Shown piece after piece: positions 11,801 to 64,000 of a stretch of 64,000 nt of DNA (positions are counted from its first letter, which is position 1; each line of letters starts with the position of its first letter). The stretch is from Euglena gracilis. Taxonomy: Eukaryota. Below the pieces are notes generated by a model, which was given only the letters and a program-made list of their open reading frames with translations, was not told the origin of the DNA and searched no databases. Location of the stretch: the NCBI GenBank assembly GCA_039621445.1, contig CP154954.1:39827816-39891815 (forward strand), written 5' to 3'. The position numbers were made by a program, and so were the translations under genes.

Positions 11801-11809
11801 CCCCCAAAA

Positions 11810-12170: not shown

Positions 12171-12174
12171 AATG

Positions 12175-13490: not shown

Positions 13491-13532
13491 TTTGGAGAAT
13501 GCCCTGGCCCCCCTTTTTTCGGTGCACAATCT

Positions 13533-13635: not shown

Positions 13636-13774
13636 GAGCCCAACCCCCCACCCGTTGAAGAAAATTTGTCTTCAAACGCCCTCGGTCAGAGGATGGGGGC
13701 CAGGGGGGGGGCTAAGGGGGGGGGAACCCCCCAGGGAAAAAGACAGCGCCATGGTCGCCACGTCGGAGACAATG

Positions 13775-13937
13775 CAGCCAACTCCGGCGAGGCGGCACTA
13801 AGCGGAACCTCCTCACCCATGCGCAGCGAACAATCACACAACAAACCGCCGGCGAGCAAGGCATGGCCTGACAATGTCTTTGTGCTTCGCCCTCGGTGTC
13901 CCTTCCTCCCTTTTCGGCTTTCCTCGAGGGAGTATGA
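13775..13937 (+). repeat. DIRS right inverted terminal repeat plus extension
   Basis: 13775-13869 is inverted relative to the left LTR. 13871-13937 is inverted relative to ICR 13569-13635. Confidence 0.85.
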
Positions 13938-16351
13938 AATTACAGGTGCCCCCCAAAAAATAAAAACAGTAAAAAAGGAGCTGGGAAAATGGTGAAAAAA
14001 GATTAAATGTCAAAAAGGCAACTGGCTGCAATTTTGGGCCAAATCAGATGCAATCTAATTGCCCTGCCCTTTCTAAGGGCCTCTGCGGATGCCCTGGCAA
14101 TATTTTTGGTGGAAAATTCCACAGCCCCCTGGGACTCAAAACACCCCATTTCCCAAAGAATAAAGGACCAATTAAGAGAAATAAAAATTCTGCTGGACAC
14201 CTGGGCGGGCAGACCCTTCCCCCAAAATGCAACCAGGGAGTTGCACTCACATAGCAGTACCCATGCCTGGGGGGGGGGGGGCTGGACATTCGAACAGGCG
14301 AAATTGTGCAAGAATTTTGGAGGGAAAACTCCATTTTGCACATAAATGTCAAAGAATGAAGTGCAGCAATAAGCACAGTTCAAAGCCTCAGCCAGCCAGG
14401 GGAAACTGTGTCCCTATCCGTGGACAATCAAGTAATTTACTATTACTTGACAAAAGGGGGGGCAGAAAGGACCCTTTCAATTCCATGCTAAGACCCTTCT
14501 TCAAATGGTGCGTGGAACACAAAATAAACCTGCAAGTGAAGTGGGTCCCCTCAAAAGACTGCCTGGCAGACCCCATAAGCAGGTGGGAAATGGACAGGGG
14601 GGATTACTCACTGGACCCCCAACTTTTTCAATGGCTGAGGCAGCAGTTCAAAAATTACATCAGCCTGAAAACAGACCTTTTTGCCTCACCAGGCAACAAG
14701 AAAATGCCACAATTTGTGGCCAGGTGGCCCCACTGGGAAGCCACAGCAGTGGATGCACTGCAATGTCCACTGGACAACATGGGGGATCTTTATGCAAACC
14801 CCCCATGGTCTGTATTCCAAAATTTTCTCCCCAGATTAAAAATGTTTCCACGGGCCAAAGTTTTGATGGTCACCCCCTTTTGGGATTCAGCCACATGGTG
14901 GCCCCAATTAATAAAAATGAAAGTTCCAGGGACCCCCTGCCTGAAAATCACCCCCTACATGGGTATGTTCACCAATTGCAGGGGGAAAAAAATGCCACCC
15001 CCAGGTGGCCCCTGCTTTGCATGATTTGCTCAGGCAAATTCTGGAGGGGAAACAAGTACAAAATTCGACCATTAACGATTTCCTGGGCAGAAACCCCAGT
15101 TTAAAGCGTTATCAAAGCGCTTTTACGCTTTTATGGGAAATTTTGGACAAGATGGGGGTATCCCCCCTGATGCCACCACTGACCAAGTGGTTGACGCTTT
15201 AATTCAACTGTTTCAATTTTCAAAGGCCCAAGCACGCAATGCATACAGTGCTATGCTATTGATTCCTGGCTTTGGAGGCCTCAGGTTCCATGCCATGTTG
15301 GCACCTTATAAAAGGCTTTGAAACCAAAACCCGGAGAGATATGGGGCATTCTGGGATCCCCTCCCAATCCTCCTGGGGCTGGCACAGTCCCCCCTGCCCT
15401 CTGATATATGTACATTTGCGTACAAAACTCATTTTCTGTTCACGAATCCTCTGTTTATACAGAAGTTCAGATTTGGCACAGGTCCAAAGAACCACCAGTG
15501 TGTTGGGGGGGGCACCCTACATCAAAATTAAACGTAAAGGGCAAACTCTCCATAAGTGGGAGAGAGTTGTCTCCATTCCCCAGTGCCCCCCGTTCAGTCC
15601 CTTCCATTTAATGACGTCTTATGTGGCAGCAACACGTTTCTTTATGAAACCTGGGGGCCCCATGTTGATTTCGTTAAAACCCCCCTACAAAGCCATTAAG
15701 GCAGATACCATTGCTTCTATCACCAAAGACTTTTTGACCAAACAGGGGGTACCCCCCAGGTTTGGGGACCCCACTCCACCAGAGGGGCAGGGGTGGGTCT
15801 GCTAAAAAAAATTGGGTCTTTCTGCCCAAGAAGTTTGTGAAATTGGTCAATGGAAGGGGGTGGAGGCTTTCACAGCCCATTATCAAAGACTTGGTGCCCA
15901 AGGTTCTTTGGAGAATGCCCTGGCCCCCCTTTTTCGGTGCACAATCTGGCCTCACAAGGGCAAAGTGCGGAGCCCGAGGTGTCTCGTACTCCCTCGAGGC
16001 GGACCGAGAAGGGAGGAAGGGACACCGAGGGCGAACCACAAAGACATTGTGAGCCCAACCCCCCACCCGTTTAAGAAAATTTGTCTTCAAACGCCCTCGG
16101 TCAGAGGATGGGGGCCAGGGGGGGGCTAAGGGGGGGGGAACCCCCCAGGGAAAAAGACAGCGCCATGGTCGCCACGTCGGAGACAATGCAGCCAACTCCG
16201 GCGAGGCGGCACTAAGCGGGACCTCCTCACCCATGCGCAGCGAACAATCACACAACAAACCGCCGGCGAGCAAGGCATGGCCTGACAATGTCTTTGTGCT
16301 TCGCCCTCGGTGTCCCTTCCTCCCTTTTCGGCTTTCCTCGAGGGAGTATGA
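13938..16351 (+). mobile_element. Tandem copy 2 of the DIRS 3' half (RT thumb-RH-MT-YR-ICR-right LTR)
   Basis: Near-identical to 11523-13937; offset 2415 bp. Confidence 0.93.
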
Positions 16352-18767
16352 AATTACAGGTGCCCCCCAAAAAATAAAAACAGTAAAAAAGGAGCTGGGA
16401 AAATGGTGAAAAAAGATTAAATGTCAAAAAGGCAACTGGCTGCAATTTTGGGCCAAATCAGATGCAATCTAATTGCCCTGCCCTTTCTAAGGGCCTCTGC
16501 GGATGCCCTGGCAATATTTTTGGTGGAAAATTCCACAGCCCCCTGGGACTCAAAACACCCCATTTCCCAAAGAATAAAGGACCAATTAAGAGAAATAAAA
16601 ATTCTGCTGGACACCTGGGCGGGCAGACCCTTCCCCCAAAATGCAACCAGGGAGTTGCACTCACATAGCAGTACCCATGCCTGGGGGGGGGGGGGGGCTG
16701 GACATTCGAACAGGCGAAATTGTGCAAGAATTTTGGAGGGAAAACTCCATTTTGCACATAAATGTCAAAGAATGAAGTGCAGCAATAAGCACAGTTCAAA
16801 GCCTCAGCCAGCCAGGGGAAACTGTGTCCCTATCCGTGGACAATCAAGTAATTTACTATTACTTGACAAAAGGGGGGGCAGAAAGGACCCTTTCAAATCC
16901 ATGCTAAGACCCTTCTTCAAATGGTGCATGGAACACAAAATAAACCTGCAAGTGAAGTGGGTCCCCTCAAAAGACTGCCTGGCAGACCCCATAAGCAGGT
17001 GGGAAATGGACAGGGGGGATTACTCACTGGACCCCCAACTTTTTCAATGGCTGAGGCAGCAGTTCAAAAATTACATCAGCCCGAAAACAGACCTTTTTGC
17101 CTCACCAGGCAACAAGAAAATGCCACAATTTGTGGCCAGGTGGCCCCACTGGGAAGCAACAGCAGTGGATGCACTGCAATGTCCACTGGACAACATGGGG
17201 GATCTTTATGCAAACCCCCCATGGTCTGTATTCCAAAATTTTCTCCCCAGATTAAAAATGTTTCCACGGGCCAAAGTTTTGATGGTCACCCCCTTTTGGG
17301 ATTCAGCCACATGGTGGCCCCAATTAATAAAAATGAAAGTTCCAGGGACCCCCTGCCTGAAAATCACCCCCTACATGGGTATGTTCACCAATTGCAGGGG
17401 GGAAAAAATGCCACCCCCAGGTGGCCCCTGCTTTGCACGATTTGCTCAGGCAAATTCTGGAGGGGAAACAAGTACAAAATTCGACCATTAACGATTTCCT
17501 GGGCAGAAACCCCAGTTTAAAGCGTTATCAAAGCGCTTTTACGCTTTTATGGGAAATTTTGGACAAGATGGGGGTATCCCCCCTGATGCCACCACTGACC
17601 AAGTGGTTGACGCTTTAATTCAACTGTTTCAATTTTCAAAGGCCCAAGCACGCAATGCATACAGTGCTATGCTATTGATTCCTGGCTTTGGAGGCCTGAG
17701 GTTCCATGCCATGTTGGCACCTTATAAAATGCTTTGAAACCAAAACCCGGAGAGATATGGGGCATTCTGGGATCCCCTCCCAATCCTCCTGGGGCTGGCA
17801 CAGTCCCCCCTGCCCTCTGATATATGTACATTGCGTACAAAACTCATTTTCTGTTCACGAATCCTCTGTTTATACAGAAGTTCAGATTTGGCACAGGTCC
17901 AAAGAACCACCAGTGTGTTGGGGGGGGCACCCTACATCAAAATTAAACGTAAAGGGCAAACTCTCCATAAGTGGGAGAGAGTTGTCTCCATTCCCCAGTG
18001 CCCCCCGTTCAGTCCCTTCCATTTAATGACGTCTTATGTGACAGCAAAACGTTTCTTTATGAAACCTGGGGGCCCCCTGTTGATTTCGTTAAAACCCCCC
18101 TACAAAGCCATTAAGGCAGACACCATTGCTTCTATCACCAAAGACTTTTTGACCAAACAGGGGGTACCCCCCAGGATTGGGGGCCCCACTCCACCAGAGG
18201 GGCAGGGGTGGGTCTGCTGAAAAAAATTGGGTCTTTCTGCCCAAGAAGTTTGTGAAATTGGTCAATGGAAGGGGGTGGAGGCTTTCACAGCCCATTATCA
18301 AAGACTTGGTGCCCAAGGTTCTTTGGAGAATGCCCTGGCCCCCCTTTTTTCGGTGCACAATCTGGCCTCACAAGGGCAAAGTGCGGAGCCCGAGGTGTCT
18401 TGTACTCCCTCGAGGCAGACCGAGAAGGGAGGAAGGGACACCGAGGGCGAACCACAAAGACATTGTGAGCCCGACCCCCCACCCGTTTAAGAAGATTTGT
18501 CTTCAAACGCCCTCGGTCAGAGGATGGGGGCCAGGGGGGGGCTAAGGGGGGGGGAACCCCCCAGGGAAAAAGACAGCGCCATGGTCGCCACGTCGGAGAC
18601 AATGCAGCCAACTCCGGCGAGGCGGCACTAAGCGGGACCTCCTCACCCATGCGCAGCGAACAACCACACAACAAACCGCCGGCGAGCAAGGCATGGCCTG
18701 ACAATGTCTTTGTGCATCGCCCCCGGTGTCCCTTCCTCCCTTTTCGGCTTTCCTCGAGAGAGTATGA
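16352..18767 (+). mobile_element. Tandem copy 3 of the DIRS 3' half
   Basis: Near-identical to copy 2; offset 2414 bp. Confidence 0.93.
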
Positions 18768-18786
18768 AATGTGTCAGCCACTTGAC

Positions 18787-20510
18787 GATAAATCTGGCCC
18801 CACCAGGCCACATGGCCGTCACTGGGGGGGGGGGGGGTGGGCTGTGAAATTCCTGGGGTGTGGGGCTGGGTGGGAAGAACGGCCACGGTTTGCCACGTGC
18901 TGACCGCATCTCCAAGGTCTCCAGCTGCTGCGGCCACTCCTCCAGGACGCCCGTGGCCACATAATTCAAATTTCTTCTCCACTGTATTGCTCATCGAAGT
19001 CGATATTGAAATTTGACAATTGACTTGTCAATTGATTTTCGTCTGGAGCGTGTTCTTCTGGATATTGAATTGATATTGACTTCTTGTCTCCGTTCTTCTT
19101 CGTTCGTGAACTCTGTTCCTTTCTTCTGGGTGTCGAAGGGCAAGTTAGGAATCAGCCAACTCCGGCGAAAGAAGGCTCTGAGGGGGACCTCCTAACCCAG
19201 CGCAGCGAACAATCACACAAACAAAAGGCATAAAGTCACAATGGCGGAGGAGGGAGGAAAAAATGAGGACAAGCAAAGTGCGGTAATGCTGTACTCAATT
19301 TTTTTGCCCCTGCCTTTCATTGGGTTTATGTTTGCTGATCCTGGTTTGGGCTGAAGATGACGCTGTGTATTCCTACAACAATCACCCCCCCGGCGGGTAG
19401 CCCATAAATGGCAAAGGCGGAGCCCGAGGGTGTACAATTCTCAATTATCCCAGGACCAAGCCCTGCCTACAGTGCTAGGCTTTTTGATTCCTGGGGTTGG
19501 GGCTGAAATTCCACACCCTATGGACCCCTTAAAAGAGGCTTTGGAGCCAAAAACCTGAGACGTATGGTGCATTTTAGGACCCCCTCCCAATCCTCCTGCT
19601 GGCAAAGGCCGTATGCCCACATGATAGTTGTACTCTGGGGTACACATGATTTTTGCTCAAGAATCCTCTGATTCCGATCCTCGGACTCATCGCAGTCCAA
19701 CGAACCACCAGTGTGTCGGTAGGGCCCATAATCAGATTAATAAGAAAGAAGTTCCATAAATGGGAAAGGGTTGCGTCCATTCCCCAGTGTCCCCAAATAA
19801 GCCCATTTCATTTGATGATGTGCTATGAGGCTGCTTCACGTTTATATGTCAGACTTGGGGTTCCCTCCTAATTTCATTAAAACCTCCTTCAGGGCCGTAA
19901 GTGCAGACACCGTTGCTTTCATCAAAAAATATTTTTTTCATCAAAAAACTTTTTTTGCGAAACAAGGTGTACCCCCAAGGTATGGGGGGCCCACCCCGCC
20001 AGAGGGGCTGGGGTTGGGTTACTCAAAAAATGGGGCCTTTCTGCCCAAGAAGTTTGTGAAATTGGCCGGTGGAGGGGGGGGTGGAAACTTTTACAGCCCA
20101 TTATCAACGGCTTGGTGCCCAAGGACCCTGGAAAATGCCCTGGCCCCCCTAATTTCAGTACAAAATCTGGCCTCACGAGGGCAACGTGCCGAGCCCGAGG
20201 TGTCTCGTACTCCCTCCAGACAAAACGACACGGGAGGAAGGAGCACCGAGGGCGAAGCGCAAAGACCTTGTGAGCTTGGCCCCCCCACCCGTAGAAGAAA
20301 ATTTTCTCAAACCCCTCGTAGAAGAATTTGAACAAGCGCTCGTAGGGACACCGAGGGCGAAGCCCAAAGACCTTGTTAGGCCTGAGGGCGAAGCGAGGGA
20401 CCTGTTAGGCCCTTCGCCACTCGTGTCCCTTCGTTGTCCCTTCCCCCCTTGTCGGTTATCCTCGAGGGAGTACGACCCTCCCGCGAGGTGAACCGGGGGC
20501 CTTTTTGGGG
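18787..20510. mobile_element. Second copy of the rearranged DIRS module (inverted left end + YR/ICR/right-end remnant)
   Basis: Direct, more decayed repeat of 7432-9149, with the same breakpoint context and the same terminal CCCGCGAGGTGAACCGG(A/G)GGCCTTTTTGGG. Confidence 0.85.
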
Positions 20511-42680: not shown

Positions 42681-42743
42681 GAGACTGTTCAGTTCAATAA
42701 AACGTTTGAACCATCTGATTGAAGTAGAAAAAAGAAACCAGAA

Positions 42744-43032
42744 TGAGTGTCAAACTGCCCCCCCCCCTCCCCCGCAGGGGGGGGTGGCAATTTGACACTT
42801 GGGTACACTTTGCGCAACAGTTTTTTTTGGCAAGCCCGGAAAAGCGGCTGTGGAATGCACGACCCTGACTCCAACCCCAACCCTAACCCAGCCCTGACAG
42901 CAAGGGGCTGCAGGGACCGAAAAGTGAGAGGAAAAAATGGAACCGCAAAAAATGATGGTAAAAGTGTACTCAAATGTCAAACTGCTACCCCCCCCCTCTG
43001 CTGGCAGAGGGGGGGTGGCAGTTTGACACTTA
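42744..43032. mobile_element. Small foldback element with palindromic ends and a degenerate (CCCTAA)n core
   Basis: Palindromes at 42746-42799 and 42973-43030 (AGTGTCAAACTGCC..GGCAGTTTGACACT). Inner inverted repeat GGGTACACTTT/AAAGTGTACTC. Confidence 0.65.
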
Positions 43033-43368
43033 TGCCATATGAAGCACACCATATCAGATCATGTCAACCTCGTCCTCAACCTCCACGGGTGGACCATATA
43101 TATCCTCCTCACTGAATAGAACCGGGGGAACGAACGAGCAACATGCAACGCAACTGAGAAAAGCCCGGGGGCGGACGGGTTGCGTGTCACCAACCGCAGT
43201 CAAAGACAGGGCATTTCGCTGTTGGGGTCAACAGAAACAGATCATCAACATTGCGCAAACCATTCACAATGTCTGAGGTTGCATCAAGTAGCACTTGTCC
43301 TTCTCCTCCCCAGTGGTGTCTCCCGCCAATTCCCCCCGCCAAACTTGCATAAAAAATGCCCTGGTGAG

Positions 43369-44625
43369 GATGGGTAACACAAGGGATTTTGTTATTTTGG
43401 GGCCCTCGAACAGTTGGGCAACAAAACGGATTTGCCCCCCCCCAAAATGGGTGGGTAACACAAGGGATTTTGTTATTTTGGGGCCCTCGGACAGTTCGGC
43501 AACAAAACGGATTTGCCCCGCCCCCCCAAAATGGGTGGGTAACACAAGGGATTTTGTTATTTTGGGGCCCTCGAACAGTTCGGTACCCAAAGGGTTTTGC
43601 CCCCCCCCCCAAAACGGGTGGGTAACACAAGGGATTTTGTTCTTTTGGGGCCCTCGAACAGTTGGGCAACCAAAGGGATTTGCCCCCCCAAAACGGGTGG
43701 GTAACACAAGGGATTTTGTTATTTTGGGGCCCTCGAACAGTTCGGCAACCAAAGGGATTTGCCCCCCAAAACGGATGGGTAACACAAGGGATTTTGTTGT
43801 TTTGGGGCCCTTGAACAGTTCGGCAACCAAAGGGATTTGCCCCCCCCCAAAACGAATGGGTAACACAAGGGATTTTGTTATTTTGGGGCCCTCGAACAGT
43901 TCGGCAACCAAAGGGATTTGCCCCCCCCCCAAACGGGTGGGTAACACAAGGGATTTTGTTGTTTTGGGGCCCTCGAACAGTTCGGCAACAAAAGGGATTT
44001 GCCCCCCAAAACGAATGGGTAACACAAGGGATTTTGTTGTTTTGGGGCCCTCGAACAGTTCGGCAACCAAAGGGATTTGCCCCCCCCCCCAAAACGGGTG
44101 GGTAACACAAGGGATTTTGTCATTTTTGGGCCCTCGAACAGTTGGGCAACAAAAGGGATTTGCCCCCCCAAAACGGGTTGGTAACACAAGGGATTTTGTT
44201 GTTTTGGGGCCCTCGAACAGTTGGGCAACAAAACGGATTTGCCCCCCAAAACGAATGGGTAACACAAGGGATTTTGTTGTTTTGGGGCCCTCGAACAGTT
44301 CGGCAACCAAAGGGGTTTGCCCCCCAAAACGGGTGGGTAACACAAGGGATTTTGTTGTTTTGGGGCCCTCAAACAGTTCGGCAACCAAAGGGATTTGCCC
44401 CCCAAAACGGGTGGGTAACACAAGGGATTTTGTTATTTTGGGGCCCTCAAACCGTTCGCCAACCAAAGGGATTTGCCCCCCAAAACGGGTGGGCAACACA
44501 AGGGATATGCCCCCCAAAACGAATGGGTAACACAAGGGATCTTGTTATTTTGGGGCCCTCGAACAGTTCGGCAACCAAAGGGATTTGCCCCCCAAAACGG
44601 TTGGGGAACACAAGGGATTTTGTTA
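43369..44625. repeat. 78-bp satellite block 2
   Basis: Same monomer and orientation as the main array. Confidence 0.97.
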
Positions 44626-45773
44626 AAACCTATTTTCTGGGCCCGACGCCTGTCTTGAAATTCTACTGACATTAACGGATTTCAGGCTGAAATTGTTTAT
44701 GTCGGTCGATTTCCATTCAGGCGCCCGTTTATGTCGGTCGATTTCCATTCAGGCGCCCGTTTATGTCAGTCGATTTCCATTCAGGCGCCCGTTTATGTCG
44801 GTCGATTTCCATTCCATTGAAATCTGTTGCTGGTCAGATTGGGAATTTTTAGGGACTTTTTGGACATTTTGGATTTCCCTTTTTTTCGACATTTTTGGTC
44901 CTATGGGGTTGTGGAGGAGCTATGGATCAGACAAAAACCAAATTTTGTGGCCAGGTGATCACAGCTGGCTGAACTTTGGATGGAACAGACGGAAGGACGG
45001 TATTTAAGATTATTATTTTCTGGATCTTCAGAAAAAGCATTCGGCAAATTTGTCCTGAACCAGTTGTCATCACTGGTCATCTGAAAGAAAACCTTTCGGG
45101 TGAGGAGTGATTTGGCAATGTCAAACCTATTTTCTGGGCTTGACGCCTGTATTGCAATTATATTGACATCGTCGGATTTCGGGCCAAGGCTGTGTTCATA
45201 GCAACATGGCTTTGGTCAAAATCTGTCTTTCTAAAAAAAACGCAGTCTCTGGCCTGAGTCTGTGTTTCGAAACGCTCAGTCTGTTATTCGGCCTGAGTCT
45301 GCGTTTCGAAACGCAGACTCAGGTCAGAGTCTGCGTTTAAGACGCAGTTCTTGATATAGAGATTGAAAAAAGAAAAAAGCAGTCCGAAAAAAAAGGCAAA
45401 AGGTTGGTCGACATTAACGGGCTTCAGGCTGAAACTGACAATGTCCCGAAACCGAACAAAAAGGCATTCAAAAAAGGAAACAAAAGGTTGGTCGATTTCC
45501 AAGACATCGGAAACCGTTTATGTCAGTCGATTTCCAATCAGGCGCCCGTTTATGTCAGTCGATTTCCATTCAGGCGCCCGTTTATGTCGGTCGATTTCCA
45601 TTCAGGCGCCCGTTTATGTCGGTCGATTTCCATTCAGGCGCCGTTTATGTCAGTCGATTTCCATTCAGGCGCCCGTTAATGGGCCAAAAACCACCTTTTT
45701 GACCATATTTCCGTCCAGGCGGTTCGGTCGAATGAATATCAAGACAGGCGTCGGGCCCAGACAAAATAGGTTT
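44626..45773. mobile_element. TA-flanked non-autonomous TIR element A with internal 32-bp tandem repeats
   Basis: ~40-bp TIR AAACCTATTTT(GT)CTGGGCCCGACGCCTGTCTTGA, with TA on both sides. GTTTATGTC(G/A)GTCGATTTCCATTCAGGCGCCC occurs ~4x at 44695-44815 and ~5x at 45516-45680. Confidence 0.85.
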
Positions 45774-45776
45774 TAG

Positions 45777-45880
45777 AAAAATCGACCGACACTAACAGAT
45801 TCAGCAGGGGCGCCGGGCGGCTCGCTTCGCTCGCTCGCGCCCGGCGCCCCTGCTGAATCTGTTAGTGTCGGTCGATTTTT
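45777..45880. repeat. Perfect palindrome P1: 43-bp arms, 18-nt loop
   Basis: 45777-45819 is the exact reverse complement of 45838-45880. Loop GCTCGCTTCGCTCGCTCG. Confidence 0.95.
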
Positions 45881-46144
45881 GTATAAAAACCGTTAACCGT
45901 TCACGGGCTTCCCCACGTGAGGAAACGGGGTGCGTTCACGGGTGCGCACTGCGGCACCCGTGAACGGACCCCGTTTTCACATATGCGCACCCGTGGTCGG
46001 TTCACGGGTGCACAGACGGCAGCCGTGGACGGAATTTTACATTAAAAAAAGGGAAAACATTTACGCAGTAGGGAAGAGGATTTGAAACAAATGGCGAACC
46101 TGGTGAACTTGAGGGGTGGGGGCAGGAATGCAAGAGGTGGCATA

Positions 46145-47224
46145 GAGGACAAGGCAGTACAGTTGGTCAAACCTTGGGACCCCCCCCTCCCCCCCCCTGT
46201 ACAGTTCCAACCCCCCCCTCCTGGGACCCCCCCCTCCCCCCCCACTTCCAACCCCCCCGAGACAGATGAAAAAATTTTTGTCCGAAATTGGTCATTTTTT
46301 TCATTTTTGAAAGGAAATTTTGTCAGGATTTTCTTGACCATCACATTTTTTGGGATGCATTTTGGGCCATTTTTGAAAGAATGCCCAAAAAAATGCTGTT
46401 TTGGATGTGGAAATGCACCATTTTTTTTGCACATTTTTTTAAAAAGGAAAAAGGTCATTTTTTTTTATCTCTGCAGCTTCGTAGTCCATAAAGGGTGCTG
46501 GCTTTCACATGAACCATCATTTTAGTATTTTTGGATGAAAGGTCTGGAAAAACTAAAAACGTCACTTTGATGATTAAAAAGATTACTTCAAAACTTTTTC
46601 CTAAAAAAAATGGTCATTCCGCAAGGAAAAAAGTCAACTTTTGCTTTTTTTTAAAAAAAATAACATTTTGGGGGTTTTTTTTAAAAAAGAACATGTTTTT
46701 TTTTTAAAAAAAACAAAACAAAAAAAACGTCAACCCTGCCCCCAGTTAGTGACCCCCCCCCCCTATTAGTAACCCTTGGGCCCCAGGCAAAAACAATTTT
46801 TTGGAGGGAAATATTTTTCTTTGAAAAAAAACCACCAAGTTTGGCCATCGGAATTATTTGATGGTTGCCATTCATGAAAATTGCCCCGGAATGCCCAAAA
46901 AGACAACCTTGAAACACCCAAGAATTGGGGTAGGGGGCAAAAATTAGGCATAAATTGCCCCCCCCCCCCCGAGTTAGTCAGTTCTTACACCCCCCCCTCC
47001 TATTAGTCACCTTGGCCAAATTCCCCTCCCAAGGGGGTGACTAACTATGGGGGGGGAATGGTATGCACAACGAAGACAACCTCAATTGGACGAAAAATGT
47101 CGCAACTGTCTCGGGGGTAGGCAGTACAGTTGCGATTTTCTGGGGACCCCCCCCTCCCCCCCCCCTGTACAGCTTCCAACCACCCCCCACGGACCCCCCC
47201 CCTCCCCCCCCTGTGCCTTGTCTC
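46145..47224. mobile_element. MITE with GAG..CTC termini and a 4-bp TSD (Sola2-like pattern)
   Basis: CATA|GAGGACAAGGCA ... TGCCTTGTCTC|CATA. Subterminal GGCAGTACAGTTG and CTGTACAG motifs at both ends. Confidence 0.65.
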
Positions 47225-47228
47225 CATA

Positions 47229-47805
47229 GGGCTTGACACGCGGCAAACTAAATTTCGGTGCGAGGCACATGCTCGCGATGCCTTTCGGCATGGTCAGAGG
47301 AACAACAGGACGGATAACTCAACGACAACCCTGACAAATCCACGCTTTTTTCGGCGCGTGACGCAGCTCAGCACACACAAAATGATACGTCTACATACGT
47401 TTACATAGGTCCGAAAACTGGACACTGGCATGGAGCGAAGGCGCCCATCTTTTCCTACCTTCTCCTGCCTTGTCTGGACCCAGGCATCGGCTTCCTGCTG
47501 CGTCTTGAAAAGTTCACGAGCATCAACGCACCATCTGGCCCATCCCACCAAAACTTCGTCCAAAGAGCCAAAAACAACGCCATGCCGGTTGCAAACATCC
47601 ATATACTCCAAAAAACACTTTACTGCGGCATGGTTCTTGGGGCCCAGGTCACAATTTTGACCACCGGTGGGGAGACTGCCTAAAAGGGCATCCACTTCAG
47701 CAGCTCCTAGGGAGCCGGCACCACGTAAAACAGCCAGAAATTCATCTACGTTGGGAGGGGCGGGGCATCTGTGCTTCCATCATGTTGGCAAACCGCTTCA
47801 TCGGA
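47229..47805 (-). pseudogene. Coding remnant inside element B, weakly resembling a tyrosine-recombinase core-binding domain
   Basis: Protein-like frame NVDEFLAVLRG..AAVKCFLEYMD..LDEVLVGWARWCVDAR..GKDGRLRSMPVSSFRTYVNVCRR. Preceded by a pyrimidine tract + CAG acceptor (47806-47808). The family assignment is by eye only. Confidence 0.35.
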
Positions 47806-48086
47806 CTGTGGGGAAAAGCAGCAGACAGACAGAAACACAAATGTTAAAAACCCAAAAATTTCAAATTCCGATCACGGGTAACACCTTGCGCAACCGTGGT
47901 CGGTTCACGGGTGCACGCACGGCAGCCGTAGACGGAAATTCCGTTCACTGGTGCGCACTACGGCACCCGTGAACGGCCCAAGTTCACCCGTGAACGCCAA
48001 AAACGAGATTTTTGACCCCCTAGGCATCTCGTTAGGAAGCGCTTGCCTACTGCGAGGAAGCCCGTGAACTTTGGTTAACGGTTTTA

Positions 48087-48192
48087 AGAAAAAAGCGGGG
48101 TCCGATCACGATTCCCGGTGGAGAAACGAGGGGGGCCTACGGCGCCCCCCGTTTCTCCACCGGGAATCGTGATCGGACCCCGCTTTTTCTTA
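48087..48192. repeat. Near-perfect palindrome P2: 39-bp exact arms plus GC inner stem
   Basis: AAAAAGCGGGGTCCGATCACGATTCCCGGTGGAGAAACG and its reverse complement surround AGGGGGGCCTACGGCGCCCCC. Confidence 0.95.
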
Positions 48193-48195
48193 TAA

Positions 48196-51820: not shown

Positions 51821-52080
51821 GGGGGCGACGGCAGTACAGTTGGGGTTTTTTGGGGACCCCCCCCTGTACAGTTGTGATTTTTGGGACCCCCCCCAGTGCC
51901 GAACCGTCCGAGACAGATGAAAATTTTGACACCAAAAATGGCCTTTTTAGACCAAAAAAAGGCCTTAAAAATTTTTTCCGGCGCCTTCAGCGCCGGTTTT
52001 TGGCCAATTTTTGAGGGGGGGTTGGCAGTGCAGTTGGGAACCCAGGACCCTCCCCCCCCCCCTGTGTCGAGACAGTACAG
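51821..52080. mobile_element. MITE fragment of the same family as 46145-47224
   Basis: GGGGCGACGGCAGTACAGTTGG terminus, CTGTACAGTT, GAGACAGATGAAAA and a central CCGGCGCCTTCAGCGCCGG hairpin. Confidence 0.55.
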
Positions 52081-55000: not shown

Positions 55001-56224
55001 AAAAAAACAAAAGCTTCTTAGTGGTCTTATGCAGGCTCAGAAATGTTTTCTGCTTTAGTCCGCTCTAATTTTTCTTTGATGATTTGCCCAATCCAGATGC
55101 AGCTCTGACGAACGCAGGTGGTTGTCATAAAAAAAACTCAGTGGAGTGCAGTGCAGTGTTGGCCTCATTGCCCAACTCCTGTGTTGTGATTTGAAGGCAA
55201 CTCATCCAGCACTCCAACCCAGAACTGCGTCAATGCCAACCACTGGCTCCTCCATGCTGCTGCATTTTGCTGCTTGTCACGAGTCCCATGTGCACCTCAT
55301 CAATGAAGCAGGTGAAATGCTTGGGTGCCAAAAGATGCAAGTGCCAAACGTTGCAACTGTCAGCTGTCACTTGACAGCTCAAACAAAGACGGTTCTTCTT
55401 CACTGCTCGACCGCCACCCCCCCAAACAACAACACTTTGGTTCTTGAAGGAATGGGTTTGGGTCAGGGTCAGGGTCAGGGTGGAGGTGAGGGTCAGGTTC
55501 AGGGCAGCTGGCGGTTGAGTGGTGAACAAGTGCCACCAAGACTTTTTCCCAGAAACCTGCAGTTCATGACATCGATTGCTCAGACCAAGCATTCCACCGT
55601 CCGGACCCTGTGCAGTCATGTTTGAGCAATCAAACAGCTGACCCCTACCGATGCCTTTCAAATGGTGGTACTTGTTCGCCAAGGGACCTTCACCCAAAAT
55701 TTTACAAGTCGGTTCCCCTGAGGCCTGAATCGTGGTTGTCTGACACATCTCATGGTTTGGGGTGGGCAAGAGTGTTTGCTGCCAGCACCTTCACAACGGG
55801 GGGTAATTCCCTTGTGGAGGCAAAATGTCGGGGGCTTTGACTTTCTTCATCCCTGCCAGTCGTCTGCTTTGGGATGGCAGGGCAATCCGAAACCCTGCCC
55901 CCAAGGTACCCCTCCTCTTATTGCCCCACCCCCCCGGTGAGGGAGGTCCCCAAAAAACCCCAACTGGACTGCCGTCGCCCCATTGACCCCCCCCATTTGA
56001 CCGATCGCCCCGCCCCCCTAATTGACTGTCTGGGGGGATTCCGTGCTGAAGCGCCGCCTAATTGACAGCACCCCCCCCCCCTACTTGAACCCCCACCCAC
56101 TAATTGACCAAAAGGGTGGTACAAAAAAGCCAGCCATTTTTAGCCATTTTGGTCTGTTTCGAAGCCTTTTTCATTCTTTCCTTCTCTGTCACAGCTCCAG
56201 CACCGCCCTCCCGCCCCCGATCAC

Positions 56225-59200
56225 CTGGTGATCGCCGGCGCCCCTCCCCTTCCTCACCCACACAATCGCTCCTGACCAAAATGGCATCCTTGGTGAGAAA
56301 AGTCGGACAGAAACTCATTAAAAGGGGGGTTAAACCTCACAAATTGTGATGGGAAACGCAAACTGCAAAGACCTTCACAGGGAAAATATCCATGATGTGA
56401 GCAGGGCGATTTGGGCACACTTTTGGTGATAAACTTGGAGTATTTCCACACACTTGGAGCGATTCCGTGCTGGCATTTCCTCCCCGCCCCTCTCCCTGCC
56501 CTCCCCACGCCGGCGCACAGGGTTGCATGGGAAGTTGCGCAGACATGAGGAAGGTGGCAGGGGAGGGTCACCCCCCCCCTGGGGGGGTGAGGTGGCAGAG
56601 TCCCCCAGTGTCAGAAGGGGGGTCCTCCCACACCCACCTCCTCTGCGGGGGCAAAAAAAAATCTTCCGGCGCTCTCTTGAGAGTCAGCATAATTTTTGGC
56701 AAATGGCACAAATGGCTGTAGCTCGGGACAGGCAGGGAGTTGCGGGGGAATCGATTTGGTTTTCCTGACATTTCCTCTGATTCCCTGCCATTTCTCAGAA
56801 TTTCCCAGAGAAATTGATTTCTCTGGTACTGGGAAAAGTGGCCAAAATTTTCGGCAACCGAAAACTGGGAGGCGGAGGCCAGGTCCTCCCACCCCCCCCT
56901 CCAGTTTTGGAAGGGCGCTCCCCCCCACTCCTCCGAGATTCCCATACGACTGTGCCGCCGAATCACCTCGTGATCGCCGGCCCCGCCGCCCTCCCCCTTC
57001 GCCTCGCCCTCCCCACGCCGGCGCACAGGGTTGCATGGGAAGTTCCGCATACAGAGGTTGGTGGTAGCACACCCCCCCCCCCCACCAAGGGGGGCAAGGT
57101 GGCGGAAAGGGGGGAGGCAAACAAAAATCTTCCGGCGCTCACGACGGGTGTGCATTTTGGGACCCTCTTGAGGGTCAGCATGAAATTTTGGCAAATGGCC
57201 GAAAAATGGCCGTAGCTCGGGACAGGCAGGGAGTTGCGGGGAAATCAAAATACTGTTGGATTGACATTTCCTGACATTTCCTCTGATTCCCTGCCATTTC
57301 TCAGAATTTCCCAGAGAAATTGATCTTTTTTAACCTGAAAAACGGCCAAAGATTTCGGTGACCGAAAACTGGGCAGGGTCCTCCCCCCCCCAGTTTTGGA
57401 AAGGTGCTCCCCCCCCCCACTCCCTCGTCCGAGGTTCCCATACGGCCCTGCTGCCGCATCACGTGGTGGTCGCCGGCCCCGCTGCCCTCCCCCTTCGACG
57501 CTCCCTCCCCCTTCGACGCTCCCTCCCCACGCCGGCACACAGGGTTGCATGGGAAGTTCCGCAGACAGAGGACCCCCCCCTGGAGGCAAGGTGGCGGAAA
57601 GGCGGGGGGGGCAAAAAAAATCTTCCGGCGCTTCATGCCGGGGGTGCATTTTGGGACCCTCTTGAGGGTCAGCATGAAATTTTTGGCAAATGGCCACAAA
57701 TGGCCGTAGCTCGGGACAGGTGGGGAGTTGCGGGGAAATCAAAATACTGTTAGATTGGGCATTTTCAGGGCTTCAATTTGGTTCTCCTGACATTTCCTCT
57801 GATTCCCTGCCATTTTTGAGAGACACCAAAAAAAACTGATTTTTTATTTAACCCGGACGATGGCCAAAATTTTCGGCGAACGAAAACTGGGTCCTCCAAC
57901 ACCCCCCCCAGTTTTGGAAGGGCGCTCCCCCCCACTCCTCCGAGATTCCCATACGACCGTGCCGCCGAATCACCTGGTGATCGCCGGCCCCCTTCGCCTC
58001 GCCCTCCCCCTTCGCCTCGCCCTCCCCCTTCGACGCTCCCTCCCCACGCCGGCGCACAGGGTTGCATGGGAAGTTCCGCATACAGAGGTTGGTGGTAGCA
58101 CACCCCCCCCCACCAAGGGGGGCAAGGTGGCGGAAAGGGGGGGGGCAAACAAAAATCTTCCGGCGCTTCACGCCGGGTGTGCATTTTGGGACCCTCTTGA
58201 GGGTCAGCATGAATTTTTGGAAAATGGCCGAAAAATGGCCGTAGCTCGGGACAGGCAGGGAGTTGCGGGGAAATCAAAATACTGTTGGATTGACATTTCC
58301 TGACATTTCCTCTGATTCCCTGCCATTTCTGAGAGAAATTCCCAGAGCAACTGATTTTTTTTAACCTGAAAAACGGACAAAGATTTCGGCGACCGAAAAC
58401 TGGGCAGGGTCCCCCCCCCAGTTTTGGAAAGGTGCTCCCCCCCACTCCCTCGTCCGAGATTCCCATACGGCCCTGCCACCGCATCACGTGGTGGTCGCCG
58501 GCCCCGCTGCCCTCCCCCTTCGACGCTCCCTCCCCCTTCGACGCTCCCTCCCCATGCCGGCACACAGGGTTGCATGGGAAGTTCCGTCCAAGTTGGATTG
58601 GGCATTTTCAGGGCTTCAATTTGGTTCTCCTGACATTTCCTCTGATTCCCTGCCATTTTTGAGAAACACCAAAAAAAAACTGATTTTTTATTTAACCCGG
58701 ACGATGGCCAGAATTTTCGGCGAACGAAAACTGGGTCCTCCAACCCCCCCCCCCAGTTTTGGAAGGGCGCTCCCCCCCACTCCCTCCTCCGAGATTCCCA
58801 TACGACCGTGCCGCCGAATCACCTGGTGATCGCCGGCCCCGTCGCCCTCCCCCTTCGCCTCGCCCTCCCCTTTCGCCTCGCCCTCCCCCTTCGACGCTCC
58901 CTCCCCACGCCGGCGCACAGGGTTGCATGGGAAGTTCCGCATACAGAGGTTGGTGGTAGCACCCCCCCCCACCAAGGAGGCAAGGTGGCGGAAAGGGGGG
59001 GGCAAACAAAAATCTTCCGGCGCTTCACGCCGGGTGTGCATTTTGGGACCCTCTTGAGGGTCAGCATAGAATTTTTGGCAAATGGCCGAAAAATGGCCGT
59101 AGCTCGGGACAGGTGGGGAGTTGCGGGGAAATCAAAATACTGTTGGATTGACATTTCCTGACATTTCCTCTGATTCCCTGCCATTTCTCAGAATTTCCCA

Positions 59201-60845
59201 GAGAAATTGATTTTTTTTAACCTGAAAAACGGCCAAAGATTTCGGCGACCGAAAACTGGGCAGGGTCCCCCCCCCCCAGTTTTGGAAAGGTGCTCCCCCC
59301 CACTCCCTCGTCCGAGATTCCCATACGGCCCTGCCGCCGCATCACCTGGTGATCGCCGGCCCCGCCACCCTCCCCCTTCGACGCTCCCTCCCCCTTCGAC
59401 GCTCCCTCCCCATGCCGGCACACAGGGTTGCATGGGAAGTTCCGCAGACAGAGGACCCCCCCCTGGAGGCAAGGTGGCGGAAAGGGGGGGGGCAAAAAAA
59501 ATCTTCCGGCGCTTCACGCCGGGTGTGCATTTTGGGACCCTCTTGAGGGTCAGCATGAAATTTTTGGCAAATGGCCACAAATGGCCGTAGCTCGGGACAG
59601 GTGGGGAGTTGCGGGGAAATCAAAATACTGTTGGATTGGGCATTTTCAGGGCTTCAATTTGGTTCTCCTGACATTTCCTCTGATTCCCTGCCATTTTTGA
59701 GAGACACCAAAAAAAACTGATTTTTTATTTAACCTGAACAATGGCCAAAATTTTCGGCGAACGAAAACTGGGTCCTCCCACACCCCCCCCCCAGGGTTCG
59801 ATATAAGGAGGGCGTACATGGTTTAGGTGGGGGGGGTGTCCCCCCCCACCCCCCCCCCTCCTGGCCCGCAGGGGGGGGTCCGGACCACCCCCCCCCCCAC
59901 CTGCAAGGGGGGTCCGGACCGACCCCGGGGGGCAAAAATTGACCCCCCCCAAAAGGGTCAATTTTTTCCTCCGGCGCTTCGCGCCGAAAATTTTTTGCAT
60001 TTTTGGCACATTTTTGCCCAAAAAGTGCCCAAAATGGCACTTTTGGTCGTTTTGGGGGTCAAAAATTTTCGGCCACCCTGACCGCGCACCTGTTTAGGGG
60101 GGGGGGTTGTCCCCCCCACCCCCCCCCCTCCTGGCCCGCAGGGGGGGGACCGGACCCCCCCCACCTGTCCTTATATCGAACACTCCCCCCCCCCAGTTTT
60201 GGAAGGGCGCTCCCCCCCTCCCTCCTCCGAGATTCCCATACGACCGTGCCGCCGAATCACCTGGTGATCGCCGGCCCCCTTCGCCTCGCCCTCCCCCTTC
60301 GCCTCGCCCTCCCCCTTCGACGCTCCCTCCCCACGCCGGCGCACAGGGTTGCATGGGAAGTTCCGCATACAGAGGTTGGTGGTAGCACACCCCCCCCCAC
60401 CAAGGGGGGCAAGGTGGCGGAAGGGGGGGGGCAAACAAAAATCTTCCGGCGCTTCACGCCGGGTGTGCATTATTTTGGGACCCTCTTGAGGGTCAGCATG
60501 AATTTTTGGCAAATGGCCGAAAAATGGCCGTAGCTCGGGACAGGCAGGGAGTTGCGGGGAAATCAAAATACTGTTGGATTGACATTTCCTGACATTTCCT
60601 CTGATTCCCTGCCATTTCTGAGAGAAATTCCCAGAGCAACTGATTTTTTTTTAACCTGAAAAACGGACAAAGATTTCGGCGACCGAAAACTGGGCAGGGT
60701 CCCCCCCCCCCCGGTTTTGGAAAGGTTGTCCCCCCCACTCCCTCGTCCGAGATTCCCATACGGCCCTGCCACCGCATCACGTGGTGGTCGCCGGCCCCGC
60801 TGCCCTCCCCCTTCGACGCTCCCTCCCCACGCCGGCGCACAGGGT
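56225..60845. repeat. ~510-bp tandem repeat with alternating A/B monomers (~1.03-kb dimer)
   Basis: The anchor CCCCACGCCGGC(G/A)CACAGGGT recurs at about 56503, 57011, 57525, 58042, 58550, 58903, 59408, 60329 and 60824. One unit has a ~160-bp deletion and one has a MITE insertion. Confidence 0.93.
59792..60185. mobile_element. hAT-like MITE (394 bp) inserted in a C-run of the 510-bp repeat
   Basis: TIR CAGGGTTCGATATAAGGA / TCCTTATATCGAACACTC. Internal ~70-bp direct repeats. The host repeat resumes in register. Confidence 0.85.
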
Positions 60846-60884
60846 CACCCTGGCCCTGCCGGCCTGCCAGCCCAAACTGCTGGC

Positions 60885-61090
60885 CATACCATTGCTTAAC
60901 ACCTGGACTACCCTACCTCCGAAGGGGGGGGGGGTGACTGACGCCGCTGGGGGGGGGTGACGAAAAGTGGCTGGCCTGGCGCCAAAGGCGCCGGATTTTT
61001 TTGATTTCTCCTATTCAGGGGTACAGTGACTGACTGGTTTTTTCAGAATGGAACGTGACCCCCCCCAGGGGGTCGCTAAGCAATGGTGTG
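60885..61090. mobile_element. 206-bp MITE with an 8-bp TSD (hAT/P-like)
   Basis: TIR CA(T/C)ACCATTGCTTA; TSD CTGCTGGC at 60877-60884 and 61091-61098. Confidence 0.88.
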
Positions 61091-61442
61091 CTGCTGGCCC
61101 CAGCACCCATGCCGGCCTGCCGGCCCATCCTGCTGGCTCTCCCAGCACCCAGTCTGCCGGCCCTCCCACCCCTGCGGCCTGTTCAGGGTTTGTTCCCCTG
61201 GTGCACCTGACGTGTTTTTCTTCAAAAATCATCATTTCGCCAAAATGGCCAAAATCTGTCCAACCTGGTGCCAGGTTTTTTTTGAAGGTTTGCCGAAGAC
61301 GTATCCATTTTTGGGCATTTCTCGACCAACCAGAACTCCCAGGGCTGTGTGGGCACCCTAAAGCCAATGGGTAACAAATGACAGTTGAACCTTCCATATA
61401 ATTTGCAAATGAATGTTTTTTTTGGGCACTCACGTGCAATCA

Positions 61443-61778
61443 ATGTCATGTGCAACGTCCCCATTTTTCACAACAACCAACCCTCGCCCCACCCCACCGC
61501 CGCCGCCACCAAACAACCAACTCTTCCTCTACAACTACACTCCATTAAACTACTGCTACAACTACACTCCACCGCCCTCCGCAGCAGCCCCCAGCAGCAT
61601 CAGCGTCACCGCCACCCCAACATTCCGCCCCAAACCTCCGACGCCCCCGGCCTCAACATCAACGCCCACCCCCACGACCACCACCAACACCCCCACAACC
61701 ACCACAACTGCTAAGGCAACCGTCACCACCTGGGCTGTGGCCATCGTCGCCGTCATCCTCCTCTTCCTCGCCTTCCAG
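61443..61778 (+). CDS. Possible exon: Thr/Pro-rich mucin-like stalk followed by a transmembrane helix
   Basis: ...PTPTTTTNTPTTTTTAKATVTT-WAVAIVAVILLFLAFQ ends at CAG|GTTTGT, a donor-like site. Low complexity makes a chance ORF possible. Confidence 0.3.
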
Positions 61779-61939
61779 GTTTGTCTTGTTTGCATTCCTC
61801 GCATTGTGGTCAGTCTGTGCACCCCTCCAAAAGCCCCATTCAAAACCCCCATCATCAGTACCACGGCTAGTAAACAACCACAGTGAAAAAATTTTGGCAA
61901 TTTTTGTTTGGTATGAAACGAGGTACGATTTTTTGGGGA

Positions 61940-64000
61940 ATTAGGCAGTTTTTTCAGTATTATTCGGGGAGGCTCGCGGGGGTGGGGGGGGGGGCGGGAT
62001 TTTTTGGGGCCAGATTGCCTCAATGCCAGGAAATTCGGGGGTGCCAAAAAGTGCGACCAGCCCCCGGGACCAGGTCGGCTGGGTTCCCCGCCCCCCCAAA
62101 ACCCCACTGCCACCGGAACCACTGCTGGTAAAACACCCCGCAATAGCGAAATTTGGGCAATTTTTTCAGTACAATTCGGGGCGGCTGGTGGGGGTGGGGG
62201 GGGGGGCGGGATTTTTTGGGGCCAGATTGCCTCAATGCCAGGAAATTGGGGGGTGCCAAAAAGTGCGACCAGCCCCCGGGACCAGGTCAGTCGGCTGGGT
62301 TCCCCGCCCCCAAAAACCCTCTTGCCACCGGATCCACTGCTGGTGAAACACCCCGCAATAGCGAAATTTTGGCAATTTTTTCAGTATAATTCGGGGCGGC
62401 TGGTGGGGGGGGGGGCGGGATTTTTTGGGGCCAGATTGCCTCAATGCCAGGAAATTGGGGGGTGCCAAAAAGTGCGACCAGCCCCCGGGACCAGGTCGGC
62501 TGGGTTCCCCGCCCCCAAAAACCCCACTGCCATTGGAACCACTGCTGGTAAAGCACCCCGCAATAGCGAAATTTTGGCAATTTTTTCAGTATAATTCGGG
62601 GCGGCTGGTGGGGGTGGGGGGGGGGCGGGATTTTGGGGGGCCAGATTGCCTCAATGCCAGGAAATTCGGGGGAGCCAAAAAGTGCGACCAGCCCCCGGGA
62701 CCAGGTCGGCTGGGTTCCCCGCCCCCAAAAACCCTCTTGCCACCGGATCCACTGCTGGTAAAACACCCCGCAATAGCGAAATTTTGGCAATTTTTTCAGT
62801 ATAATTCGGGGCGGCTCGCGGGGGTGGGGGGGGGGCGGGATTTTTTGGGGCCAGATTGCCTCAATGCCAGGAAATTCGGGGGTGCCAAAAAGTGCGACCA
62901 GCCCCCGGGACCAGGTCGGCTGGGTTCCCCGCCCCCCAAAAACCCTCTTGCCACCGGAACCACTGCTGGTAAAACACCCCGCAATAGCGAAATTTTGGCA
63001 ATTTTTTCAGTTCAATTCGGGGCGGCTGGTGGGGGTGGGGTGGGGGGGGGGGCGGGATTTTTTGGGGCCAGATTGCCTCAATGCCAGGAAATTGGGGGGT
63101 GCCAAAAAGTGCGGCCAGCCCCCGGGACCAGGTCAGTCGGCTGGGTTCCCCGCCCTCTTGCACCGGATCCACTGCTGGTAAAACACCCCGCAATAGCGAA
63201 ATTTTGGCAATTTTTTCAGTATTATTCGGGGCGGCTGGTGGGGGTGGGGGGGGGCGGGATTTTTTGGGGCCAGATTGCCTCAATGCCAGGAAATTCGGGG
63301 GTGCCAAAAAGTGCGACCAGCCCCCGGGACCAGGTCGGCTGGGTTCCCCGCCCCCCAAAAACCCCACTGCCACCGGAACCACTGCTGGTAAAACACCCCG
63401 CAATAGCGAAATTTTGGCAATTTTTTCAGTATTATTCGGGGCGGCTGGTGGGGGTGGGGGGCGGGCGGGATTTTTTGGGGCCAGATTGCCTCAATGCCAG
63501 GAAATGGGGGGTGCCAAAAAGTGCGACCAGCCCCCGGGACCAGGTCGGCTGGGTTCCCCGCCCCCAAAAACCCCACTGCCACCGGAACCACTGCTGGTAA
63601 AACACCCCGCAATAGCGAAATTTTGGCAATTTTTTTCAGTACAATTCGGGGCGGCTGGTGGGGGTGGGGGGGGGCGGGATTTTTGGGGTCCAGATTGCCT
63701 CAATGCCAGGAAATTCGGGGGTGCCAAAAAGTGCGACCAGCCCCCGGGACCAGGTCGGCTGGGTTCCCCGCCCCCAAAAACCCCACTGCCACCGGAACCA
63801 CTGCTGGTAAAACACCCCGCAATAGCGAAATTTTGGCAATTTTTTTCAGTACAATTCAGGGCGGCTGGTGGGGGTGGGGGGGGGGCGGGATTTTTTGGGG
63901 CCAGATTGCCTCAATGCCAGGAAATTGGGGGGTGCCAAAAAGTGCGACCAGCCCCCGGAACCAGGTCGGCTGGGTTCCCCGCCCCCAAAAACCCCACTGC
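61940..64000. repeat. ~210-bp tandem repeat, about 10 copies, running off the window
   Basis: CCAGATTGCCTCAATGCCAGGAAAT recurs at about 62010, 62222, 62431, 62641, 62851, 63068, 63270, 63481, 63690 and 63901. Confidence 0.96.

Follow-up and report, generated by a model that had tools for sequence, protein, structure and literature searches.

Inverted-repeat elements with adjoining cognate palindromes in a Euglena gracilis satellite, and a possible link to a tyrosine recombinase

Introduction

When an inverted-repeat element and a long hairpin lie side by side, do they move separately or as one piece? This question is raised by a 3,570-bp block that splits one monomer of a satellite in a 64,000-nt stretch of the Euglena gracilis genome (assembly GCA_039621445.1, contig CP154954.1, positions 39,827,816 to 39,891,815 of the forward strand). 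This whole stretch is called the window here, and positions are counted from its first letter. The window consists of eukaryotic, highly repetitive sequence, and the satellite, with a period of 78–79 bp, occupies ~20–49 kb of it. The block contains, in this order, a body with terminal inverted repeats (TIRs; body A), a palindrome (P1), a second body of the same kind (B) and a second palindrome (P2). Each palindrome shares motifs with the body that precedes it, and B retains a decayed part of a Cre-like tyrosine recombinase gene. All results on the block come from this one locus in the 64-kb window, and from protein relatives of the recombinase.

A first-pass annotation of the window proposed that the mobile unit is the body together with its hairpin, and that two families of this architecture had piled up at one target. 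In the current study, we weigh this proposal against four separate insertions, against rolling-circle elements and against an artefact.

Results

The block interrupts a single satellite monomer

Removing positions 44625–48194 yields a canonical 29-nt monomer joint that is present 98 times elsewhere in the window, and the satellite interruption described in the first-pass annotation is thus real. The monomer breaks after ..GTT(A) at 44624/44625 and restarts with (A)TTTTGGGG at 48195/48196. The boundary of the block is ambiguous by 1 nt (A44625 or A48195), and the insertion falls at GTT^A or GTTA^T. The same annotation regarded the pieces as TA-targeting and stacked in one TA site, which was not borne out, as no TA duplication flanks the complete block: the left flank ends in ..GTTA and the right flank reads ATTTT, with one A in common. 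This failure is weak evidence, since one extra base is needed and a single-base indel would rescue the duplication; the extra A was found in none of the 281 satellite monomers.

The satellite also shows higher-order periods of 157, 240 and 321 bp. Its monomer joint occurs mainly in two variants, GTTGTTTT in 119 and GTTATTTT in 112 of the 281 monomers, and between these two only GTTATTTT has the T-A step used by the insertion. A satellite target resembling the joined ends of the element was considered and rejected: the TIR of A compared with the satellite gave a score reached by 96 of 1000 shuffles, and the other comparisons ranged from 185/1000 to 867/1000.

Joints between the pieces

Every piece of the block is flanked by T-A steps, but the TA separators proposed in the first-pass annotation are not uniform. 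In both units the body is joined to the palindrome through GGTTTT-A-(A)GAAAAA, and both palindromes are followed by TATA rather than TA. When the block is cut at 45885/45886, both resulting pieces begin with AAAACC and finish with TATA, with zero bases left over. Parsed as four TA-duplicating insertions, the same sequence has a surplus of two TA, each immediately 3' of a palindrome, and a single A. Because the two-unit parse leaves no bases over, body plus hairpin is favoured, by a small margin, as the inserted piece. Besides, the ends of the palindromes, (A)GAAAAA, differ from those of the bodies, AAAACC, so that one end-recognising enzyme would not be expected to move both separately. The position of the inverted repeats depends on the parse as well: they lie at the extreme ends if there are four pieces, and they are absent from the extreme ends if each piece is a body with its palindrome, as the opening AAAACC then has no inverted partner at the closing TATA.

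Each palindrome is related to its own body

The sequence relationships were assessed by alignment scores compared with those of shuffled sequences (given in brackets as the shuffles scoring as high). P1 scored 34 (0/500) when compared with the opening 120 nt of unit 1, to which it belongs, and 12 (499/500) with those of unit 2. The corresponding scores of P2 were 28 for its own unit (0/500) and 14 for unit 1 (367/500). Over whole bodies, the P1 arm scored 34 against A (0/300) and 16 against B (278/300), while the P2 arm scored 28 against B (2/300) and 20 against A (21/300), a comparison that is weaker for P2 than the one over 120 nt. The first-pass annotation had read A's motif in the arms of P1 and B's motif in those of P2, and the own-unit and cross-unit scores confirm this reading. 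It had also described the palindromes as equal in size with unrelated arms. They measure 106 and 104 nt, and their mutual score of 18 (83/500) is not significant, although the outermost (A)GAAAAA, about 7 terminal bases, is common to both. Both palindromes are present where that annotation had seen them, with their starts corrected to 45776 (P1) and 48087 (P2). Between the first 45 nt of A and B the score was 12 (227/500), AAAACC being the only match.

The part of each body that matches the palindrome is itself a degenerate palindrome (P1' in A and P2' in B, collectively P'), both arms of which match the outer ~20–27 nt of the P arms. P1' aligned with the P1 arms with scores of 24 and 34 (0/300) and had a predicted fold of -8.6 kcal/mol (z -3.4), and the stretch around P2' (45915–46015) folded with -44.9 kcal/mol (z -8.4). 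P' is offset from the 5' end of the unit by 33 nt in A and 35 nt in B, and P starts 1 nt beyond the 3' TIR in both units. Two families unrelated in sequence have one geometry, namely TIR, P', body, TIR, A, P and TATA.

No second copy of A, B, P1 or P2 was found within the 64-kb window. The exact P1-arm and P2-arm strings had no match in viral contigs, the 32-bp repeat unit of A had none in metagenome contigs, and translated open reading frames (ORFs) through the 3' part of A, and through the 3' TIR of B and P2, had no match in protein collections.

The same block might instead record four separate insertion events, each driven by a Tc1/mariner-like DDE transposase that duplicates TA, with A and B as non-autonomous TIR elements and P1 and P2 as Stowaway-like foldback miniature inverted-repeat transposable elements (MITEs), each re-using the TA made by its predecessor. 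P' would then be an old nested palindrome or a common binding-site sequence, and the recombinase gene would either be carried as a passenger or act in resolution, following the precedent of MarCry-1_FO or Tec1/Tec2. We regard this as a serious rival, nearly as probable as the explanation that we prefer. All pieces have inverted ends and flanking T-A steps, and no kind of MITE is commoner than the TA-flanked, hairpin-forming elements of ~100 bp. The bases would fit exactly if the monomer formerly read GT-TA-TA-TA-A-TTTT, and footprints left by earlier excisions could likewise account for the surplus bases. Composites of DDE transposase, tyrosine recombinase, TIRs and TA duplication are on record in the excerpted account of PMC3212892. 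On the other hand, the block lacks a TA duplication and the extra bases required occur in none of the 281 monomers, and both extra TA steps stand immediately 3' of palindromes. Each palindrome shares subterminal motifs only with its own neighbour while its ends differ, whereas common terminal bases would be expected in a MITE belonging to the same family. The near-identical offset of P' in two families unrelated in sequence also argues against this explanation, as does the order of the pieces, since a random order puts each palindrome directly 3' of its cognate body in 2 of 24 orders. The absence of a Pfam DDE domain from the 53 window ORFs is weak evidence, as the elements are non-autonomous.

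The palindromes fold strongly and are unlikely to be assembly artefacts

The predicted DNA folds of the two palindromes are very stable, with -61.3 kcal/mol for P1 (z -17.4) and -63.9 kcal/mol for P2 (z -16.3), and in each case none of 200 shuffles was as stable. A fold-back artefact of assembly or sequencing, in one or both palindromes, would be a trivial source of such structures, and we regard it as highly improbable. Fold-back chimeras are usually kilobases long and exact, while these palindromes are short (~105 nt), lie between different unique sequences and are imperfect, with two mismatches per arm pair and asymmetric loops. The two also differ in sequence but have the same joints, and the body that belongs to each palindrome holds a diverged relative of it.

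Body B carries a remnant of a Cre-like tyrosine recombinase gene

An open frame of 161 codons on the minus strand of B (47297–47779) has 53 relatives among 1.84 billion representatives, the best of them 88% identical. The gene fragment to which it belongs (Table 1) contains a frameshift near residues 11–15, and its start codon lies ~285 bp inside the 3' TIR of B, read inward. The remainder of the gene was not present in the window by tblastn. With the start codon near the 3' TIR and the rest of the gene missing, B is laid out like an autonomous element that has undergone an internal deletion. The full-length relatives are ~400–490 amino acids long. Protein relatives are 88–92% identical to the remnant, and their 90% cluster includes a Euglena gracilis transcript of EukProt. 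The family is unannotated, its sources giving only 'hypothetical protein'. Two relatives (P0016 and P0028) are entered under the carnivorous plant Genlisea aurea, likewise as hypothetical proteins and from ~1-kb contigs; these may be contaminants from trapped protists, the closest named relative being the Euglena transcript.

In an alignment of 14 of the 53 relatives, an arginine column is invariant and a lysine column is near-invariant, and inspection by eye adds a conserved H...Y pair near the C-terminus. Pfam Phage_integrase gave weak matches in 5 of the 14 members (best E 0.0028, below the cut-off), DUF3504 and GCR1_C gave no Pfam match in the family, and a profile search of PDB sequences with the alignment returned no match at E up to 10. 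The AlphaFold model of one relative, P0031, has a mean pLDDT (predicted local distance difference test) of 71.3. Foldseek matched it to Cre/loxP complexes with E 5e-8 and TM (template modelling) scores of 0.52–0.56 on the target, followed lower down by XerH, XerA, IntI (rank 37) and the Tn1549 integrase. The B remnant covers the N-terminal, core-binding part of the recombinase.

Searches with the recombinase alignment gave 27 pattern matches in metagenome contigs and 13 in viral contigs, none of which was confirmed. A link to the DIRS-like ORFs of the window was also considered, and none was detectable (hhalign probability below 1%). Pfam detected no DDE, Rep or helicase domain among the 53 window ORFs scanned, which is weak evidence in non-autonomous elements. 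The first-pass annotation had guessed at a recombinase acting on the palindromes, and the presence in B of the 5' third of a Cre-like tyrosine recombinase gene supplies a candidate for it; we infer the role of the enzyme in moving these units.

The remnant also bears on a further explanation, in which a Rep/helicase mobilises the units as non-autonomous rolling-circle elements similar to Helitron2/Helentron (HINE- or DINE-1-like). On this view the 3' TIR would be the subterminal asymmetric TIR, P the 3' terminal stem-loop and the recombinase piece a captured gene fragment. The excerpted descriptions of such elements (PMC4067079, PMC5148889) list several traits that recur here. One TIR forms the 5' tip, and the 3' TIR is subterminal, with a terminal palindrome behind it. 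Palindromes adjoin both TIRs, tandem repeats lie in the centre (in A, two 32-bp arrays), A/T runs of varying length mark the boundaries, and the target is a fixed dinucleotide that is not duplicated. The dimensions disagree with the values in those excerpts, as the stems measure 48–49 bp here and 5–10 bp there, the TIRs ~40 nt compared with subterminal TIRs of 12–15 bp, and the 3' TIR lies ~111–120 bp from the end rather than 38–60 bp. The target is T^A here, and TT, or TTTT then T or C, in the published cases. No remnant of a Rep or helicase was found by Pfam in the 53 window ORFs, and the fragment in B begins at the gene's own ATG near one end, like a deletion derivative and unlike a random capture. 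We consider a rolling-circle origin improbable.

Features of the block and its surroundings

The coordinates of the features of the block are listed in Table 1. Body A is a rearranged element, because the internal copy of its 5' TIR has neither TA nor a palindrome before it. The element nested in B is foreign and stands outside the system of bodies and hairpins. Its direct repeats are rich in C runs (GGGACCCCCCCC...), and related C-rich repeats occur at 51830–51894, ~4.6 kb downstream.

Table 1. Positions of the satellite flanks, the two units and their parts in the window.
Feature	Position	Strand	Remarks
Satellite left flank, insertion host	43371..44624	+	right flank 48195 to ~48922
Unit 1 (1,261 bp): body A, one A, P1, TATA	44625..45885	+	starts AAAACC, ends TATA; read directly
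Body A	44625/6-45774		~39-nt TIRs, 94% complementary over 31 nt
5' TIR of A	44625..44663	+	pairs with 45734-45774
P1', degenerate palindrome inside A	44657..44712	+	homologous to outer ~27 nt of both P1 arms
Tandem array in A	44695..44814	+	32-bp unit, 3.8 copies, bearing P1-arm motif TGTCGGTCGATTT
Internal second copy of A's 5' TIR and start of P1'	45123..45184	+	84% identity
Second 32-bp array in A	45514-45681		5.3 copies
3' TIR of A	45734..45774	+	GGTTTT at end, then A45775
P1, 106-nt palindrome	45776..45881		49-nt arms, 96% complementary, 18-nt loop
TATA tail 3' of P1	45882..45885	+	end of unit 1, abuts AAAACC of unit 2
Unit 2 (2,309 bp): body B, one A, P2, TATA	45886..48194	+	starts AAAACC, ends TATA; read directly
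Body B	45886-48085		~40-nt TIRs, 3-nt indel between them
5' TIR of B	45886..45925	+	pairs with 48043-48085
P2', palindrome inside B	45918..45981		28-nt arms, 89% complementary, 8-nt spacer
Nested unrelated element in B	~46152..47211	+	bounded by ~92-bp direct repeats, 83% identity
Pseudogene fragment, residues 1-139 of Cre-like tyrosine recombinase	47384..47801	-	tblastn, 92% identity to P0054
Further set of P2'-type palindromes close to the 3' end of B	47887..47984		92% identity to 45984-46034 and 45933-45971
3' TIR of B	48043..48085	+	GGTTTT at end, then A48086
P2, 104-nt palindrome	48087..48190		48-nt arms, 96% complementary, 3-nt loop
TATA tail 3' of P2	48191..48194	+	end of unit 2; satellite restarts at A48195

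The satellite has a second interruption at 42683–43370 (~690 bp), which is of a different kind, has no T-A joints and contains two C/G-rich hairpins on GTCAAACTGC...GCAGTTTGAC, at 42746–42799 and 42972–43031. Outside the satellite, positions 1300–4700 hold the remnant of a retrotransposon of the long-terminal-repeat type, with RVT_1, RT_RNaseH and integrase-core matches in broken frames. It is followed at 4870–7030 by ~2 kb of purine-rich low complexity with an AT skew of up to 0.61, which is open in several frames and encodes R/E/K repeats on one strand and L/S/F repeats on the other. A tandemly reiterated DIRS-like retroelement region spans 9000–19000. Its ORFs give a reverse-transcriptase match (10824–11504, E 1e-10) and weak matches to Dam-like adenine methyltransferases (14185–15021 and 16421–17488, E 0.0035–0.0077); a 2026 preprint on retrotransposons with adenine methyltransferases reportedly mentions Euglena gracilis. 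A palindrome of ~100 bp (9023–9122) stands at the upstream edge of this region and was set aside as a relative of P1 and P2, having no T-A flanks and no similarity to either. The end of the window (56000–64000) is GC-rich (58–60%) and made of reiterated ~0.4–0.9-kb units that are open in both strands and encode recurring peptide motifs, with no Pfam match.

Discussion

A possible route of insertion

The body with its hairpin as the inserted unit, as the first-pass annotation had it, is favoured here rather than established. It gives the only parse without leftover bases, each palindrome matches its own body and the satellite monomer is restored exactly, and we infer from these observations that body and P move together. 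We tentatively prefer, at less than even confidence, to regard the block as two non-autonomous asymmetric units of a tyrosine-recombinase transposon, belonging to two families and stacked at one site. It is also plausible, as that annotation held, that this is not the layout of an ordinary MITE.

Under the preferred explanation, a unit would read, from 5' to 3', AAAACC opening a ~40-nt 5' TIR, P', the body, the 3' TIR, one A, a P of ~105 nt and TATA. Its partner enzyme would be the family's own Cre-like tyrosine recombinase, of whose gene B has kept the decayed 5' third. The unit could exit as a circle or exist as a head-to-tail copy, and in either form the TIRs would bracket P to give one interrupted palindrome of ~180–190 bp, in which the family-specific arm motifs of P and P' are putative recombinase binding sites. 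The modelled circle joint folds with -104.8 kcal/mol in unit 1 and -98.7 kcal/mol in unit 2, compared with -61.3 and -62.9 kcal/mol for P alone; as the gain is due to the TIRs themselves, it describes the geometry only. Strand exchange might take place at the TATA/AAAACC joint with a target T^A step, with zero duplication. The left half of the target would then outlive the insertion, the new joint being T (or A) followed by AAAACC, and another unit could insert there, producing the stack.

Several observations weigh against this explanation. In this A/T-rich context the two-unit parse is better by just two TA steps and a single A, and the four-piece parse would become exact if the monomer was a local (TA)3A variant. 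All four pieces are symmetric with a T-A step on either side, as expected of four TA-duplicating insertions. The target resembles the modelled unit joint no better than chance (96/1000 to 867/1000 shuffles), and the locus is single, with no further copy of any part in the collections searched. Body A is devoid of any coding remnant, the catalytic half of the recombinase is absent from this copy of the gene, and its catalytic residues are a reading of the alignment only. The known DNA transposons with a tyrosine recombinase, the Cryptons, have no TIRs according to the excerpted accounts (PMC3212892, PMC13465315), and such a recombinase can ride in a TA/TIR element moved by a DDE transposase, as excerpts of PMC3212892 describe for MarCry-1_FO, Tec1 and Tec2.

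Hairpin-tailed cassettes by analogy with integrons

A bolder form of the proposal would be a class of eukaryotic transposons whose Cre-like tyrosine recombinase acts on a long family-specific palindrome or hairpin, the units being cassettes that stack head to tail without target duplication. We think this unlikely. By analogy, the hairpin would have the role that attC has for integron integrases or that the telomere-resolution site has for protelomerases. Integron cassettes are bacterial, and each unit ends in an imperfect attC palindrome of ~60–140 nt; they have no TIRs and are built around a fixed attI platform with an integrase. attC sites have conserved R''/R' cores, and no such R-box cores were noticed in the present units, although no search aimed at them was made. 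In attC palindromes the size and the tips are conserved while the arms are not, the enzyme is a tyrosine recombinase and the units stack at one site. The likeness is an analogy, as IntI is only a lower-ranked fold match (rank 37). If the cassettes were nevertheless real, finding one geometry in two families with no sequence relationship would mean that conservation acts on structure rather than on sequence.

Comparison with known transposons

The closest architectural match is found in Helitron2/Helentron elements (HINE, DINE-1), which according to the excerpted descriptions have asymmetric TIRs, a terminal palindrome and no target duplication, as here (PMC4067079, PMC5148889). Under the two-unit parse the block has the Helitron2-type layout of a subterminal 3' TIR, a terminal stem-loop and no duplication, at a different scale: compared with the Helentron and HINE cases in those excerpts, the terminal stem is ~5–10 times longer and family-specific over ~25 nt, and the TIRs are ~three times longer. 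The Helitron2/Helentron target (TT, or after TTTT before T or C) is not the one used here, and unlike in Helentrons the sole coding remnant in these units is a tyrosine recombinase, with no Rep/helicase.

Cryptons, in the excerpts of PMC3212892 and PMC13465315, have no TIRs and carry direct repeats of 4–6 bp at their termini. The present units share with them a stand-alone tyrosine recombinase gene in the lineage, seen in residues 1–139 in B and in the fold match of the family, and apparently the lack of a true duplication; a circle intermediate and site-specific integration would fit both. They have ~40-nt TIRs, long palindromes and a terminal repeat of at most 1 nt, and as the defining absence of TIRs and presence of direct repeats do not apply, we do not file them as Cryptons. 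In MarCry-1_FO of Fusarium and Tec1/Tec2 of Euplotes, a DDE transposase occurs together with a tyrosine recombinase, and the TA duplication is clean (PMC3212892, in excerpt). Like them, B has TIRs, T-A steps at its ends and, in between, the remnant of a tyrosine recombinase gene. Unlike them, the block has no TA duplication and B has no DDE remnant, an absence that proves little in a deletion derivative. The excerpted accounts of MarCry-1_FO and Tec1/Tec2 mention no terminal hairpins (PMC3212892).

Taken alone, P1 and P2 resemble Stowaway/Tc1-mariner MITEs in being near-pure hairpins of ~105 bp with T-A on either side. They differ from Stowaway MITEs in the TATA that follows, in ends that differ from those of the neighbouring bodies, and in a fixed place and orientation beside the cognate body. 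If this ordinary explanation were right, the block would be a pile-up of MITEs in a satellite, and the recombinase family would be the only new item.

Cryptons are known mainly from their genes, and their ends and recombination sites are poorly defined. Should the present units turn out to move as body plus hairpin, they would provide a specific candidate for the site on which an enzyme of this type acts. The literature searched contains little on the mobile DNA of euglenids, and a search for Euglena together with Crypton returned no transposon paper, judged by title and the start of the abstract. Overall, the description that comes nearest is that of an element associated with a recombinase, whose asymmetric ends are Helitron2-like and whose terminal palindromes are very long and family-specific, and such hairpin-tailed elements may represent an undescribed kind of transposon.

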